From NCBI GenBank assembly GCA_964487135.1, contig CAZAOU010000002.1, positions 934 to 64,933 of the forward strand: DNA of 64,000 nucleotides, written 5' to 3'. This stretch comes from an uncultured Candidatus Saccharibacteria bacterium. Its GTDB lineage: Bacteria > Patescibacteriota > Minisyncoccia > Phycocordibacterales > CAIRYW01. Below are positions 4,208 through 58,829 of the stretch, piece by piece; position 1 is the first letter of the stretch, and each line of letters begins with the position of its first letter. The position numbers and the translations under genes are program-made. Below the pieces are notes generated by a model, which did not search any database, was not told the DNA's origin, and worked only from the letters and a program-made list of their open reading frames with translations.

Positions 4208-5161
4208 TTGCCTATGAAAAAAAAGCTTTTAAGCGGAATTAAACCGACCGGCAGAACCCATATAGGTAATTATTTTGGTGCTATAAAGCAGTGGCTTAAA
4301 ATGATGGATTCGGGAGAGTTTGACTGCACATGCATGATTGCAGACTATCACACCCTCAATTTTGTTCACAATAAGGACGAAATGAAAAATCTGACCCGCG
4401 ATATGGTATTAGACTATCTCGCTGTCGGTCTTGATCCTAAAAAAGTTACAATTTTTAAACAGTCAGACGTTTCGGCTCATACAGAACTTACATGGATTTT
4501 TGACACACTTGTTACTGTTCCATATCTAATGAGAGCTCACGCATATAAAGACGCGGAAGCAAAAGAAAAAGAAATTTCTGCGGGAACATTTAATTACCCA
4601 GTTTTAATGGCGTCTGACATTCTTCTTTACGACACAGACATCGTTCCTGTTGGAGCTGATCAAAAACAGCACATAGAGTATGCTCGAGATATTGCACAAA
4701 AATTTAATACTACTTTTGGAGAAACATTTAAACTTCCAAAAGAACTTATTATTCCTGAGGTTGCGATTGTTCCAGGAATTGATGGCAGAAAAATGAGTAA
4801 AAGCTATAGCAATACAATTCCACTTTTTGCAACAAAAGAAGAAATAACCAATGCTGTGATGGCTATTGTAACAGATTCAGGAAGTGATATTCCAACAAAT
4901 GTATACACGATTCATTCACTTATAAAAGATAAAAGTGCTCTAGATTCTATTTATAATGAAAATAAAGGTAAGTATAAAATTCTTAAAGATATGTTAATTG
5001 AAGACTTAGATGCTTTTATAAAACCAATGAGAGATAGAAGGAGTGAGTTTGAAAAAGATTCAGAAATTGTAGACAAGGTTTTAGAAGAAGGAAAATCCAA
5101 GGCAAATGAAATTGCAAACGCGACACTTACAAAAGCAAAACAAGCAATAGGGGTAATATAA
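4208..5161 (+). CDS. trpS: tryptophanyl-tRNA synthetase
   Basis: Class I HIGH-like 'TGRTHIGNY' and 'KMSKS' present ('GRKMSKSYSN'); length 317 aa typical of TrpRS. Confidence 0.9.
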   Translation: MPMKKKLLSGIKPTGRTHIGNYFGAIKQWLKMMDSGEFDCTCMIADYHTLNFVHNKDEMKNLTRDMVLDYLAVGLDPKKVTIFKQSDVSAHTELTWIFDTLVTVPYLMRAHAYKDAEAKEKEISAGTFNYPVLMASDILLYDTDIVPVGADQKQHIEYARDIAQKFNTTFGETFKLPKELIIPEVAIVPGIDGRKMSKSYSNTIPLFATKEEITNAVMAIVTDSGSDIPTNVYTIHSLIKDKSALDSIYNENKGKYKILKDMLIEDLDAFIKPMRDRRSEFEKDSEIVDKVLEEGKSKANEIANATLTKAKQAIGVI

Positions 5162-55106: not shown

Positions 55107-55154
55107 ACATACATTTTCTCATACTTTTTATACTCTTAAAACAATATTTCTAAG

Positions 55155-55364
55155 TTGTATAATATAAATGTGAAATTCCTGACTTTTCTTCTGGTTCTTT
55201 CGTTGGCTTCCACACTAACTTCTTGCACACCCTTGGATCTGGTGAAAATGAGTCGTGATCCTGCATTTCACAAATTGATAGCACCAACCACACCCCCAAC
55301 AAACAGTGTTGCCCAAGAAACAAACGAGGAGACAGCACCAGCCTCCGCTACCCCGCCACTTTAG
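55155..55364 (+). CDS. small putative lipoprotein (69 aa)
   Basis: Signal 'FLTFLLVLSLASTLTSC' with lipobox-like L-T-S-C; Pro/Thr-rich tail; GC-rich. Confidence 0.3.
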   Translation: MYNINVKFLTFLLVLSLASTLTSCTPLDLVKMSRDPAFHKLIAPTTPPTNSVAQETNEETAPASATPPL

Positions 55365-55436
55365 GCGGATTTTTAATCTTTGATTTCTTTGATAATTTTG
55401 ATACTATCTAATGCGTTCTTTTAAAGAACAAGATAT

Positions 55437-55512
55437 TCCGCGATAGCTCAGCTGGTAGAGCGGCCCGCTGTTAACGGGTTGGTCGTAGGTTCGAATCCTA
55501 CTCGCGGAGCCA
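55437..55512 (+). tRNA. tRNA-Asn (anticodon GTT), CCA encoded
   Basis: Manual fold gives a perfect 7-bp acceptor tccgcga/tcgcgga, D-arm gctc/gagc and anticodon stem gcccg/cgggt. The loop ctGTTaa gives anticodon GTT. T-arm gtagg-ttcgaat-cctac; 3' gCCA. Confidence 0.85.
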
Positions 55513-55758
55513 GTTAGGACTGTCAGCCAGTTCTAGTACTAAATTAAACGGAGAAGCTATTGTAAAATATAGCTTTTTTCCGTTTACGGTCGGGTTCTGA
55601 AGTATGTAGTTCAAAAACTGTCTTTTTCTTGCTGGTTCAGAACTATTATCAAAAATTGTTTTTGCTCTGCGTGCTACAGAAATAACAGTAGCAACGGTAT
55701 TTTGGTATTCGTAATCAGCTTTACTGTGTTCAGACATTTCAATTTCAAGTACTTGCAT
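55498..55758 (-). CDS. short orphan ORF abutting the 3' end of tRNA-Asn (possible gene remnant)
   Basis: 86 aa, no start-proximal motifs; overlaps tRNA 3' end by 15 nt. Confidence 0.25.
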   Translation of the reverse strand: MQVLEIEMSEHSKADYEYQNTVATVISVARRAKTIFDNSSEPARKRQFLNYILQNPTVNGKKLYFTIASPFNLVLELADSPNWLRE

Positions 55759-55952
55759 TTGGTCCTGTAGTTCTTGATGTTTCTTGTCATAGACATCCTT
55801 AGTAATTCACCCGATTCAATACCTGATGATTCAAAATTTAGCATTCATAAATTATACTTATTCTCTGAAGTTTTATCTATAAAATAAGTGTTTATAAAAA
55901 TCACCCTTTCCACATTTGCGGTTAGGGCGGTTGAGAGCGAGAAAAGAGTTTC

Positions 55953-56519
55953 CTACTGAACCAAGACCGCAATCATTTGGTCTGGTTCAATTGGCGCACT
56001 GGAAGGACGAAGCAGAGCTCCGAGATATGGGTCTCCGTCTTTGGAACACCCAACCTCAAGAACAATACTGTCGCCCATGCCGGGGACATCGATAGGTTGA
56101 TGGGCCAACCAGATTTTCTCTCCGGCAGGCTGTTTTGCCATAACCTCCCTCATAAACAGTCCGAGGATAGGATCAATCTTCGGGGCCTGACCGAAGAAAC
56201 TCTTCTCGGCAATCCCAGCCACACCAAGTCGCCCTGCCGAGCAAATACGAACCTTGTATAAGCCCGGTGGAATCTGTTTGATCAATCCTTGCTCGACAGC
56301 CCTTTTGACATGGTCAGAGACCATCTCTCGGGGACTGATACGGAACCGATCCAAATTGTTACAAAGGATAGCTGGAGTGACATAATCAACAGGGATATCA
56401 ACCACCCGATCAAGAATGGTGACTTTCGCACGGCCTTCAAGAAAGGCCGTGACTGCCTCAAGTTCTTGATCTGATCCGCGTCCAGCACGGATCATTTCCT
56501 GACGGATTTTTTCAATCAT
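55953..56519 (-). CDS. hypothetical wHTH-containing protein (AbiEi-antitoxin-like fold?), GC-rich
   Basis: 188 aa, ~52% GC; 'ISPREMVSDHVKRAVEQGLIKQIPPGLYKV' resembles helix-turn-helix + wing 'RGxY'. Confidence 0.35.
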   Translation of the reverse strand: MIEKIRQEMIRAGRGSDQELEAVTAFLEGRAKVTILDRVVDIPVDYVTPAILCNNLDRFRISPREMVSDHVKRAVEQGLIKQIPPGLYKVRICSAGRLGVAGIAEKSFFGQAPKIDPILGLFMREVMAKQPAGEKIWLAHQPIDVPGMGDSIVLEVGCSKDGDPYLGALLRPSSAPIEPDQMIAVLVQ

Positions 56520-56572
56520 AATCTGAATTCCTAAGCTGGGCGGGTTTAATTTGGTTTAAGTTTTGTTAGTTT

Positions 56573-56616
56573 CGCCACAGCAGAAAATGGCTTTAAAGCC
56601 ATTTTCTGCTGTGGCG
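56573..56616. repeat. perfect 44-bp palindrome (22-bp arms, no spacer)
   Basis: 'cgccacagcagaaaatggcttt|aaagccattttctgctgtggcg' between the GC-rich island and the DUF1211 gene. Confidence 0.8.
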
Positions 56617-56684
56617 AATATACTCTTTTCTCTCAAAGAACTTGAGAAGTTATACAACTTTTTATAGAAAAGTCAATTGTTATG

Positions 56685-57305
56685 CTAGTTTTCTATTTTT
56701 TCTGGAAGAAGCTCATCTATTGGTCCTGGAAGAATATAGAGAATTGGAGTAATTACAAAAAGGAAAAAACTTACTATTGGACTAAAAAACGCTAGAGCTA
56801 TTGAGATTACATATAAAGATGGGGCTACAAAAAGAGCTCTCGTTGATTTTTTTATAAATTGCTCTTCAAGACCTGATTTTATAAATTTTTTGTGCACCGC
56901 GTATTTCCAGACAAATAGATAAAATATACTGCAAACAAATAGTGTTAATCCATAAACAACAGAACCAGAAAGTGTCCAAGGGTAAGTTCCAATAAGATTA
57001 GCAGAAAAAGGAATAAAACAGATAAATAACAACAAAAGATTATTGAGACACATCAATCTAATATTTACTAATTCAATATAATGAAACATTACCCTATGCC
57101 CTATCCAAAAAACTCCGATTACAAAAAATGTTGAAGCGTAGACAATTATTTTTGGCCAGAGATTCATAAGCTCTTGAATGAGGCCCCCTTCACTAAAAGA
57201 AGACATAATTGGCACGGAAACATTTAAAACTAAAAGAGTAAGAGCGACAGCAAAAACACTGTCGCTTAGACTTATAATCCTATCTGCTGATATTCCTAAT
57301 TTCAT
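56685..57305 (-). CDS. DUF1211/TMEM175-family membrane protein (putative K+ channel)
   Basis: 'RIISLSDSVFAVALTLLVLNV' matches the TMEM175 signature helix 'R(L/I)xxFSDGVFAIAITLLVL'. Confidence 0.7.
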   Translation of the reverse strand: MKLGISADRIISLSDSVFAVALTLLVLNVSVPIMSSFSEGGLIQELMNLWPKIIVYASTFFVIGVFWIGHRVMFHYIELVNIRLMCLNNLLLLFICFIPFSANLIGTYPWTLSGSVVYGLTLFVCSIFYLFVWKYAVHKKFIKSGLEEQFIKKSTRALFVAPSLYVISIALAFFSPIVSFFLFVITPILYILPGPIDELLPEKIEN

Positions 57306-57359
57306 GAAAATATTATAACAAAATATAAACTTGTATTTAAGTTCTGATATAATTTCAAA

Positions 57360-57923
57360 ATGACAGAAATATTTGTAATAGTCGCCTCCTTGTTCGCCGT
57401 CGTTGGCAATGTTCCGTATCTCAAAGATATATTAAAGGAAAAAGTAAAACCTCATCCATACACTTGGTTTGTGTGGTCGCTAGTCTCTGGAATAAATCTT
57501 TTTGGACAAGTGGCAAAAGGAGCTGGAATTGGAGCAATACCAACCGCAGCATCAGAAATATTTACAGTCATCATTTTTTTCTTCTCACTTAAATATGGTT
57601 TTAAAAATATTCAAAAAAGAGACACTTATTTTTTAATTATTGCACTTTTAGGAATAATTCCTTGGATAATAACAAAAGATCCAACCATTTCCGTAATTAT
57701 TGTTGTGATAATAGATTTAATAGCATTTATACCAACACTTCAAAAGACATGGGCACACCCCGAAACAGAAAATTCTATTTTATATAAAATGAATGTATTA
57801 CGACATGGCTTAACGCTGCTTTCTTTGCAAAGTTATAACATCGCCACAACCCTACACTCAATTTCGATGATAATAACTAACACTTTGATGACAGTGTTTT
57901 TGTCAAAAAATAGAAAAAAATAA
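57360..57923 (+). CDS. hypothetical integral membrane protein
   Basis: 187 aa, ~6 hydrophobic helices. Confidence 0.45.
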   Translation: MTEIFVIVASLFAVVGNVPYLKDILKEKVKPHPYTWFVWSLVSGINLFGQVAKGAGIGAIPTAASEIFTVIIFFFSLKYGFKNIQKRDTYFLIIALLGIIPWIITKDPTISVIIVVIIDLIAFIPTLQKTWAHPETENSILYKMNVLRHGLTLLSLQSYNIATTLHSISMIITNTLMTVFLSKNRKK

Positions 57924-57996
57924 ATTTATATAGTGTTAGAATATTAGAAATACCTCCCAAACATCAACTCAACCTTCAAATTCAAAACTAATCGTC

Positions 57997-58560
57997 ATGT
58001 TCTTTGTAACAGTGTTTGCGTTCGTCATGTTTTGCCCCTTCTACTCATCTGTTTTTGAGTGGATACTTCATCGCTACGTTATGCACCGACCTGTCGGTAA
58101 ATTTCGATACGCCTACGAAGCTCACGCTCTAACCCACCACCGTATTTTCGGGTCAACAAAAACATACCACCTCCAAAACCCTAAGGACAAGGAAACAATT
58201 CCCATGGCGTGGTGGAATGGACCCCTGTTAATAATCATTGCATCACTGCCAGCAGTTCCGATTTGCTGGCTCATTGATGTGTGGTGGCCATTATGGGTGC
58301 TGGCATTTGAATTTACTCTATACTACGGAGCATACGAGTGTCTTCACTGGTATATGCATCTCCCGAAGGCTCGGCGGATTGAGTTTTGGGGAATATTCAA
58401 GTGACTAAACGGACATCACCTGCTACACCACAGGTATCCGGGCAAAAACTTCAATGTAGTATTTCCATTTGCCGACTGGCTTTTTGGAACACTACTCAGG
58501 AAATCACTGGCAAGTTTTGACCAGCCCCGAGGAATTGGAGTCCCTGACGTGCAACCGTAG
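57997..58560 (+). pseudogene. fatty acid hydroxylase / sterol desaturase-family gene interrupted by an in-frame TGA (58402-58404)
   Basis: His boxes 'HRYVMHRP' and 'HALTHHRIF' lie before the stop; after it the same frame continues 'LNGHHLLHHRYPGKNFNVVFPFADWLFGTLL'. That segment holds the third His box and the WxRLFGT-like motif. GC-rich. Confidence 0.6.
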
Positions 58561-58621
58561 ACAGCTTTCAAGTCTCGCTCTAAGCCACACAGCAAAGAGC
58601 GAATTTTTTATAATTACAAAC

Positions 58622-58656
58622 AAAAGCCGGGCACCCTAGGGCGCCCGGCTTTTGTT
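58622..58656. terminator. intrinsic terminator (gccgggcaccctagggcgcccggc)
   Basis: GC-rich hairpin with A-run 5' and T-run 3'. Confidence 0.6.
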
Positions 58657-58676
58657 ATTAAATTATTTTGCCTTCC

Positions 58677-58829
58677 CAAGAATGCAGTACATTCCTGTTC
58701 CGCAATCAGGACACTTTCCTTTCATTGCTTTTCTTCCGTTCTTCATTTCAACCTCCTTCGCCTCAGCCATTTCCTTTTTTGCTTTGCACTTAACGCAATA
58801 TGCTGTTGTTGCCATATGTTTTAGTTAAC
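58677..58829 (-). CDS. small zinc-ribbon protein (50 aa; CxxC...CPxCG)
   Basis: Reverse-strand ORF 'MATTAYCVKCKAKKEMAEAKEVEMKNGRKAMKGKCPDCGTGMYCILGKAK'; missed by the ORF track (<60 aa). Confidence 0.5.

Follow-up and report, generated by a model that had tools for sequence, protein, structure and literature searches.

A probable remainder of a serine-recombinase element beside a tRNA-Asn gene in Candidatus Saccharibacteria

The question raised by the locus described here is what kind of DNA borders the 3' side of a tRNA-Asn(GTT) gene in a 64,000-nt stretch from an uncultured Candidatus Saccharibacteria bacterium (contig CAZAOU010000002.1; this whole stretch is called the window below). The initial annotation, made from the sequence alone, described a GC-rich island containing an orphan gene fragment, a winged-helix protein and a palindrome, and took it for the decayed remnant of an element integrated at the tRNA gene, possibly carrying a defence or toxin–antitoxin (TA) module. 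The first of these ideas was supported by the comparative analysis, and with a probability of roughly 85% the region 55513–56570 is what remains, after decay, of a small integrative element that had inserted at the tRNA-Asn 3' end. The evidence comprised a recombinase stump 97% identical to a large serine recombinase (LSR) that abuts tRNA-Asn elsewhere, a stable 5' and a variable 3' side of the tRNA gene, and the foreign codon usage of a 188-aa gene located in the island.

The fragment called as an 86-aa open reading frame (ORF) was found where it had been described, at 55498–55758 (-), overlapping the last 15 nt of the tRNA gene, and represents the part of a longer frame that follows its first internal ATG. 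The frame read upstream to the first stop gave a query of 102 codons (ITKDVYDKKHQ...SPNWLRE), for which 283 protein homologues, 131 genome loci, all in Patescibacteria, and 277 metagenome loci were detected, and the fragment is thus not an orphan. The full-length protein of the relative L001 (507 aa) contains Resolvase (PF00239, E 1.7e-15), Recombinase (PF07508, E 6.2e-15) and Zn_ribbon_recom (PF13408, E 3.1e-8) domains and is therefore an LSR; in the full-length relatives (~505 aa), these domains are followed by a long C-terminal region. The window segment 55806–55507 was 97% identical in amino acid sequence to residues 406–505 of the L001 protein (E 1.6e-60), whereas a tblastn search with eight full-length relatives revealed no Resolvase, Recombinase or zinc beta-ribbon domain in the 64 kb. 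Since only residues 406–505 were matched and nothing else in the window, the 86-aa ORF was identified as a recombinase stump, consisting by homology of the last 102 codons (ITKDVYDKK...SPNWLRE) at 55501–55806 (-) with the frame open throughout. The window copy is a recombinase fragment and not a functional member of the family. The nucleotide identity of the stump to copies in other genomes was 93–95%, and its product shared 35% identity with the C-terminal end of another, less closely related recombinase in L030.

The 120 homologues listed among the 283 proteins were all short (95–170 aa) and 70–96% identical to the query, and those inspected terminate in residues read from the opposite strand of a tRNA 3' end. 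For detailed locus comparisons, 80 of the 131 genome loci (L001–L080) were used. In about 45 of the 80, tRNA-Asn(GTT) overlapped the end of the match, in a few it was tRNA-Gln, and an open frame of 397–438 codons was present upstream in about half of the loci. The tRNA-Asn(GTT) gene of the window was confirmed at 55437–55512 (+) by ARAGORN and Rfam (70.7 bits). The stop codon of the stump falls within the tRNA, the same arrangement being observed for full-length genes in dozens of loci, and the last bases of tRNA-Asn are common to the tRNA and the recombinase remnant.

The short frame might alternatively be a functional small gene under selection, e.g., one encoding a dominant-negative recombinase fragment that blocks related elements. 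The frame is free of stops over all 102 codons in the window as in most copies, it is preceded by a match to a promoter-like consensus, and the differences from intact-gene copies (L001, L002, L084) occur mostly at third codon positions. Such an excess is expected anyway for young copies of a recently functional gene, however, and the start codon is not conserved, with 0 to ~220 open codons upstream and many stops right at the junction; frameshifted copies were also found (the second copy in L021; L036/P0044). This explanation is considered quite improbable. The view of the stump as a hyper-conserved module was rejected, since protein conservation was uniform along the intact genes.

The intact counterparts of the stump belong to an element family recognizable in the relatives. 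Full-length recombinase genes were located at one end of 6–10 kb segments and read towards the tRNA, and the other end of the element carried a conserved "tail" of ~105 nt, preceded by T(T/G)GCTCC, that would extend the recombinase ORF in frame past ...NWL. The distance from the tail to the ITKD site in intact elements was roughly 5–10 kb, with a median of 7.6 kb (n = 32). A metagenome contig of 8,981 nt, L121, has identical 123-nt ends and is therefore circular. It contains no tRNA, and its recombinase ORF (531 aa) crosses AACTGGCTCC without a break and continues into the tail. L121 was colinear with the integrated copies L003 and L050 at 72–81% nucleotide identity, and the similarity ended exactly at AACTGGCTCC. 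Five further contigs (L119, L120, L122, L137 and L153) had the recombinase gene and the tail contiguous, with the ORF continuing ~35 codons past the crossover. Judged from these relatives, the crossover is at ...AACTGGCTCC, the end of the tRNA acceptor stem, and the uninterrupted ORF of circular L121 together with the stop of similarity at AACTGGCTCC places the attP site inside the recombinase ORF. Integration at the tRNA acceptor end thus detaches ~35 recombinase codons, which come to lie at the far end of the element. Displaced copies of the tRNA end mark this far boundary in relatives.

The tRNA 5' side (YggU/HPF/Fmt) was syntenic, with HPF/Fmt synteny in 22 of the 80 loci, while the 3' side was unrelated between loci. 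The stump was 65–97% identical in amino acids and up to 95% in nucleotides between hosts whose HPF and Fmt were just 32–55% identical to those of the window, which indicates that the elements move horizontally. Their core genes encode the recombinase, a 372-aa protein (49 loci) and an HTH_17 protein. The 372-aa protein (MIDTxxLLIPK...) is encoded at 4509–5627 in L059, at 2956–4074 in L121 and in 47 other loci, in versions 53–80% identical to the L121 copy. As cargo, the two elements scanned carry restriction-modification or antitoxin genes, among them an Eco57I-type N6-methyltransferase, a C5-methyltransferase with a HpaII endonuclease and a SocA/Panacea antitoxin. No relatives were found among viral contigs and no published description of these elements in the searchable literature, so that this serine-recombinase element family of Patescibacteria is apparently undescribed.

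The same recombinase stump, cut at an identical base, recurs across dozens of unrelated genomes. Altogether, 64 unique junctions were collected in which unrelated DNA gives way to the recombinase gene at a single, identical position, ...GGNGN^ATTACTAAGGA (the caret marks the junction). The bases left of the junction were informative at positions -5 (G in 43 of 64), -4 (G in 55) and -2 (G in 60), and no sequence information was detected upstream of -5 across the 64 junctions. In the window, this shared boundary is GGTGA^ATTACTAAGGATGTCTATGACAA at 55784–55811 (-), with the junction between 55807 and 55806, and its GGTGA^ATTACT fits the GGNGN pattern. The corresponding sequence across the cut point in intact genes reads GAGT^ATTACTAAGG, or in a longer form CCAGAGT^ATTACTAAGGACATCTATGAC. 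The average normalised codon entropy in 41 intact genes was 0.68 ± 0.26, and synonymous variation collapsed in three places only, all in the last 100 codons. The strongest collapse was located exactly at the truncation boundary, where CAG AGT ATT ACT AAG and TAT GAC were invariant. The left partners of the junctions lie in different genes, e.g., within the 372-aa gene in P0118 and within the recombinase gene itself in L040. Many truncated elements retain the tail, with a median of 1.26 kb beside it as against 7.6 kb in intact elements, and 24 of 25 retained just 0.5–3.4 kb next to the tail. The boundary appears in independent assemblies from different assemblers and hence is not an assembly artefact. 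One exact fixed end coinciding with invariant synonymous codons implies that a site-specific process makes these scars; the junctions bear the marks of a site-specific reaction in which one end is specific and the partner only loosely so, and not of random decay.

Applied to the window, these data suggest the following course of events. An element with an LSR would have integrated at the tRNA-Asn 3' end, placing its recombinase gene against the tRNA and moving the recombinase tail (~35 codons) to its far end. Everything upstream of recombinase codon ~406 would have been lost later, the right end of the deletion being fixed at the conserved intragenic site GNGN^ATTACTAAGGA. What would be left is a 306-nt non-functional stump and one foreign gene, with no far-end site. 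Such a remnant is probably inert, except that it may terminate the tRNA transcript.

What cuts the elements at this site is a separate question, for which a nickase-type mechanism and a secondary recombinase activity are hypotheses. The invariant site of ~28 nt (GAGT^ATTACTAAGGAyATCTATGAC) could tentatively be viewed as a dedicated second cis site, at which an element-encoded enzyme cuts or nicks and rejoins the end to loose GGNGN targets. If true, autonomous elements would regularly be converted in this way to mini-elements without a recombinase, or to scars, with attP and the tRNA terminator preserved. Such programmed site-specific decay or miniaturisation would explain the many "hypothetical proteins" with identical boundaries beside tRNA-Asn across Patescibacteria.

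It would also change the status of the stump, which could then be one end of a non-autonomous mini-element: the cis site in the recombinase gene would be cut or nicked by an enzyme of the element, and recombinase-less derivatives with a complete attP would integrate in trans. The candidates for this enzyme are the 372-aa protein, as a rolling-circle or relaxase-type nickase, and the recombinase acting at a secondary site. The 64 junctions with one exact end beside a short GGNGN motif and nothing further upstream, the invariant synonymous codons at the site, the short 0.5–3.4 kb segments beside the tail in 24 of 25 truncated elements and the presence of both ends in many truncated copies are consistent with this explanation, as is the existence of tandem arrays (L021). 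Deletions with one end at the nick site of a replication origin are known for pC194 and M13, which counts in the same direction. Nevertheless, the 372-aa protein has no recognizable family: Pfam, PHROGs, NCBIfam and PDB (single sequence and a 30-sequence profile) as well as plasmids and phages (tblastn) gave no match, and its interpretation as a rolling-circle Rep was rejected on these grounds. Family searches of the elements identified no nickase, Rep protein or transposase. On inspection, the internal cut site showed no resemblance to the primary att half-sites, a mini-circle was never observed, and the window copy lacks the tail and hence would be immobile even in trans. The mini-element explanation is therefore regarded as possible but doubtful, and the remainder of an integrated element, as outlined above, is retained as the preferred reading of the window.

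Several other origins of the junctions were considered and rejected. An insertion into the recombinase gene that pushed its N-part upstream was discarded because no N-part was found within 10 kb and the tails lay 0.5–3.4 kb away; the exceptions in this search were two partial cases, L040, where an internal deletion ends at the canonical site, and L049, where the boundary is another one, and in addition L016, with an unrelated second recombinase. A crossover at the ITKD site was discarded because the far end of intact elements has no second stump copy, a Xer/dif-like central crossover because the left partner in L040 is unlike the arm, and extended half-site recognition of partner sites by the recombinase because of the lack of information upstream of -5.

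The tRNA trailer at 55514–55585 (+) folds into two hairpins (55514–55536 and 55546–55585) at -24.2 kcal/mol (z -5.25), and these sit antisense within the recombinase coding remnant. The second hairpin, AAGCTAT-N8-ATAGCTT followed by a T-run, lies ~35–75 nt past the tRNA and looks like a terminator. The codons matching the hairpin (KKLYFTIAS) had near-invariant synonymous positions in the 41 intact genes and in 115 fragment sequences, and the constrained codon patch +74 to +85 corresponds to the trailer hairpin and T-run when read on the tRNA strand. As integration shifts the native downstream hairpin to the far end, we infer that a substitute terminator for the tRNA is provided by the element and lies antisense within its recombinase coding sequence. 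A conserved non-coding RNA beneath the 86-aa ORF was rejected, the tRNA being the sole Rfam match there.

The composition of the island differed in detail from its first description. The window is AT-rich (GC 0.347, sd 0.041 across 400-nt windows), and GC is indeed elevated around tRNA-Asn; instead of a single block of ~50%, two patches were found, one at 55250–55549 (0.46), formed by the end of a lipoprotein-like ORF and the tRNA, and one at 55850–56449 (0.46–0.53), formed by the 188-aa ORF, with an AT-rich stretch dividing them (55550–55849, GC 0.35). Between the junction and the stop codon of the 188-aa gene there is an AT-rich spacer of 146 nt (55807–55952 (-)), which had no similarity to any related locus. 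A single match to a promoter-like consensus is present on its minus strand and is no indication of function.

The 188-aa gene itself (55953–56519 (-)) contains the GLYKV motif noticed at first, as PPGLYKV, and is clearly foreign by composition. Its GC is 0.504 and its GC3 0.476, in comparison with 0.22–0.27 in neighbouring host genes, its codon adaptiveness is -0.207 against 0.206 ± 0.038 in the host (~10 sd away), and its GC1 is higher than its GC2, the pattern of real genes. Among 5.8 billion proteins searched by word index, the protein matched itself alone. When 1.84 billion representatives were searched exhaustively with HMMER, a 160-aa protein, P0123, was also retrieved (library-search E 2.6e-4; 26% identity and pairwise E 5e-15 in BLASTP), together with a weak match to a cold-shock repeat, and a profile search with this family returned nothing further. 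PADLOC, NCBIfam and PHROGs gave empty or insignificant results, and no plasmid or phage match was found. Two AlphaFold models were unusable (pLDDT 36). The gene is probably leftover cargo or a separate acquisition.

The protein had been proposed to be an AbiEi-type winged-helix antitoxin or regulator, with the island carrying a TA or defence module; the palindrome would in that case be its operator. A match to Pfam AbiEi_4 does exist at residues 64–88 (E 0.069), the palindrome precedes the 188-aa start codon by 52–99 nt, and defence genes do occur in intact relatives of the element. The match reached only 13.7 bits in comparison with the cut-off of 25 and was absent from P0123, the sole family relative, and the same residues aligned equally weakly with the C-terminal domain of ribosomal uS3 in a search with the two-sequence profile (E 0.004; GRLGVAGIAE vs. 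GRLGGAEIAR). No AbiEii/DUF1814 or other partner gene was detected, the neighbours being the recombinase stump and a TMEM175-family gene, and the empty PADLOC result, the lack of an NCBIfam or PHROG match and the lack of a usable structure model point the same way. Neither the antitoxin assignment nor the module was upheld, and this explanation appears highly unlikely.

The palindrome at 56571–56618 was confirmed to be perfect, although it is longer than described, with arms of 24 + 24 nt (48 bp) instead of 22-bp arms in 44 bp; as RNA it would pair over 22 bp around a loop of 4 nt. The palindrome has a folding energy of -41 kcal/mol (z between about -11 and -13) and an inner AGAAAATGGC/GCCATTTTCT design, and no shuffled sequence contained a match to one of its arms. 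The stop of the TMEM175-like gene is separated from it by 66 nt, and 52 nt separate it from the start codon of the 188-aa gene, which lies downstream. A simple terminator scan found the palindrome terminator-like on the + strand only, where a T-rich run is present. Its interpretation as a repeated element was rejected, as it was unique in the window and in the other loci compared. Perfect hairpins of at least 18 bp were represented by ~60 distinct examples in 1.77 Mb of related loci and by three in the window; most of the long ones in relatives have the A-tract/stem/T-tract design typical of bidirectional terminators, and very similar ones are common in relatives at the ends of genes and at element borders. 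In several intact elements (L001, L017, L023, L036 and L052), such a hairpin adjoins the far border and ends within, or immediately ahead of, the TGCTCC core or the displaced copy of the tRNA end. The contig L081 (Logan, SRR11567520), identical to window positions 56589–58133, comes from an independent assembly of the same organism that breaks at the palindrome centre, as expected for a palindrome longer than the k-mer of the assembler. The palindrome most likely belongs to the neighbouring host gene as a terminator-type hairpin and forms the host-side boundary of the island, though it might act as an operator for the 188-aa gene.

The 188-aa gene and the palindrome might, on the other hand, be unrelated to the recombinase element and represent a separate horizontal acquisition or host DNA beside the scar. 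None of the 80 genome loci compared resembles the segment, no tail or attR was found between it and the host gene, and a further foreign patch (57997–58404) lies 1.5 kb on, on the mosaic side of the tRNA. However, the stump junction and the first host-like gene enclose the whole segment, the GGTGA at this junction is the canonical motif found elsewhere where element cargo meets the stump, and the cargo of these elements is highly variable. A separate origin is for these reasons thought to be a real but minor possibility.

The reading of the region as the decayed remainder of an integrated element has to be weighed against several results. The direct repeat of the tRNA 3' end that had been proposed as a check was not found in the 64-kb window at up to three mismatches, nor was a tail piece. 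The 3 kb on the island side of the window had no match among the 80 genome loci, and no near relatives that could show an empty site were found in the collections via the flanking genes. The assignment of the 188-aa gene to the recombinase element and the placing of the far boundary follow from position only, the genes adjacent to the palindrome lie on the minus strand, where it is not followed by a T-run, and the terminator role of the trailer hairpin is one that we infer.

The surroundings of the island are heterogeneous. The first flanking gene beyond it encodes a TMEM175-family membrane protein (56685–57305 (-); Pfam PF06736, E 4.7e-24) and is host-like in GC3 (0.222) and codon adaptiveness (0.200). 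The second foreign-composition patch, at 57997–58404, consists of a 135-aa ORF with a GC3 of 0.51 and no Pfam match, followed in the region 58614–58815 by a 24 + 24-nt hairpin (88%) and a 50-aa DUF5679 zinc-ribbon gene, and this side of the tRNA is a mosaic. On the conserved side, the small lipoprotein-like ORF reported upstream of the tRNA was recovered as a 69-aa ORF at 55155–55364 (+) with a signal peptide and an LTSC lipobox; it has a Pro/Thr/Ala-rich tail and a GC of 0.45, and no homologue was detected among the 80 genome loci. As a whole, the window resembles a Patescibacteria (CPR) genome, the phylum to which all the related loci belong; it encodes, e.g., a pilin-like protein that has thrombospondin-3 repeats and a methylation motif at its N-terminus.

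Further observations concerned the relatives. The motif (G/C)TTCAGAAC(T/C), which resembles the TTCGAAC of the tRNA T-arm, was present in at least four copies over ~250 bp around the crossover core. Sites of the (G/C)TTCAGAAC type were located at stump positions 160–169 and 203–212 (window ~55647–55638 and ~55604–55595 (-)) and in the tails of L059, L023, L073 and others; they may be protein-binding sites, which would be unusual for a serine integrase. Tandem arrays were found in L021 (6889–7191 and 11175–11474), L027 and L073, and suggest repeated integration at the same tRNA. In L021, two truncated stumps lie 4.3 kb apart with several tail pieces between them, and tRNA-Asn adjoins the second one only. 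Copies of 15–24 nt from the tRNA 3' end were detected ~170–200 nt outside the tail in L059 (1197–1220), L023 (2577–2591), L032 (600–618) and L052 (2536–2552), followed in L059 and L023 by a conserved stretch, CTCnCTCGACTAAAA...TTTTGTCTGGGCACC. These outer copies may go back to another, or an earlier, insertion whose crossover lay in the T-stem.

A second, distant LSR (28–42% identity) was encoded in the same neighbourhoods in L014 (16913–18094), L016 (11363–12526), L017 (14111–14803) and L030 (63–1334). It adjoins tRNA-Asn in L014, and more than one recombinase lineage may use this tRNA. In L002 (6464–6734), L022 (10343–10631) and L025 (10343–10628), a group I intron was found in the tRNA-Asn anticodon loop beside the recombinase. 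The intron scored above the gathering threshold of Rfam RF00028, the tRNA-Asn that it interrupts is missed by ARAGORN, and ~11 more loci were recognized by sequence pattern. A tRNA half with conserved sequence that had been considered as attP was rejected, as it corresponds to this intron. The intron is absent from the tRNA-Asn of the window, and its occurrence in this anticodon loop has already been published for Patescibacteria (PMC13011429).

For the window alone the result is modest, a probably inert scar with one foreign orphan gene, and the object is ordinary in kind, being the scar of an integrative element at a tRNA gene, from an apparently undescribed family. Its context is of broader use. 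The tRNA-Asn gene emerges as a hotspot at which very small genomes take up small elements, and the 95–170-aa "hypothetical proteins" beside it in Patescibacteria can be annotated as recombinase remnants. Truncation at an exact boundary offers a clean, testable case of site-specific element decay, and serine recombinases that target a tRNA end and carry attP in their own gene are candidate genetic tools for a phylum that is hard to manipulate.

Among known systems, the likeness to AbiEi (Pfam AbiEi_4) is limited to a weak match over a 25-residue stretch with a G-x-Y "wing"-like motif; it is sub-threshold and missing from the sole homologue, and the protein has no AbiEii partner and no modelled fold. 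Deletions with one fixed end are known at the nick site of a replication origin (pC194, M13) or at the terminus of an insertion sequence. The truncations described here are similar to them in pattern only, with one invariant end and many variable partners sharing a short motif, and differ in that no nickase, Rep or transposase was identified in these elements. In the SSV1-type archaeal integrases, the attachment site lies inside the integrase ORF, and the gene is split when integrated and intact in the circular form. The present family is alike in this one respect, its recombinase ORF containing the att site and being split when integrated and whole when circular. The SSV1-type enzymes are tyrosine integrases of archaeal viruses and plasmids, and in the present elements only a short C-terminal tail is detached while the main body stays whole, so that they do not belong to that family.

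With the LSR elements (the phiC31, Bxb1, A118 and SPbeta prophages, Tn4451 with TnpX, and SCCmec with Ccr) the relatives share the Resolvase, Recombinase and Zn-ribbon domains with a long C-terminal region, the occurrence in both integrated and circular form and a short core common to the junctions. Unlike in those elements, the target of the relatives is the 3' end of a tRNA gene. Such targeting is more typical of tyrosine integrases (cf. PMC4383910). The elements are also unlike known LSR elements in having attP within the recombinase ORF, ~35 codons of which move to the far end on integration, and in the (G/C)TTCAGAAC motif recurring over ~250 bp around the core, as compared with the described serine-integrase sites of <50 bp (PMC1470463); the window differs in addition by holding the last 102 codons only. 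The Islander-type tRNA islands differ in using a tyrosine instead of a serine enzyme, and the far repeat is missing in the window. In other respects they are alike: the integrase gene abuts the regenerated tRNA 3' end, displaced copies of the tRNA end lie at the far boundary in relatives, and variable cargo, tandem arrays and the opposition of a conserved and a variable side are common to both.

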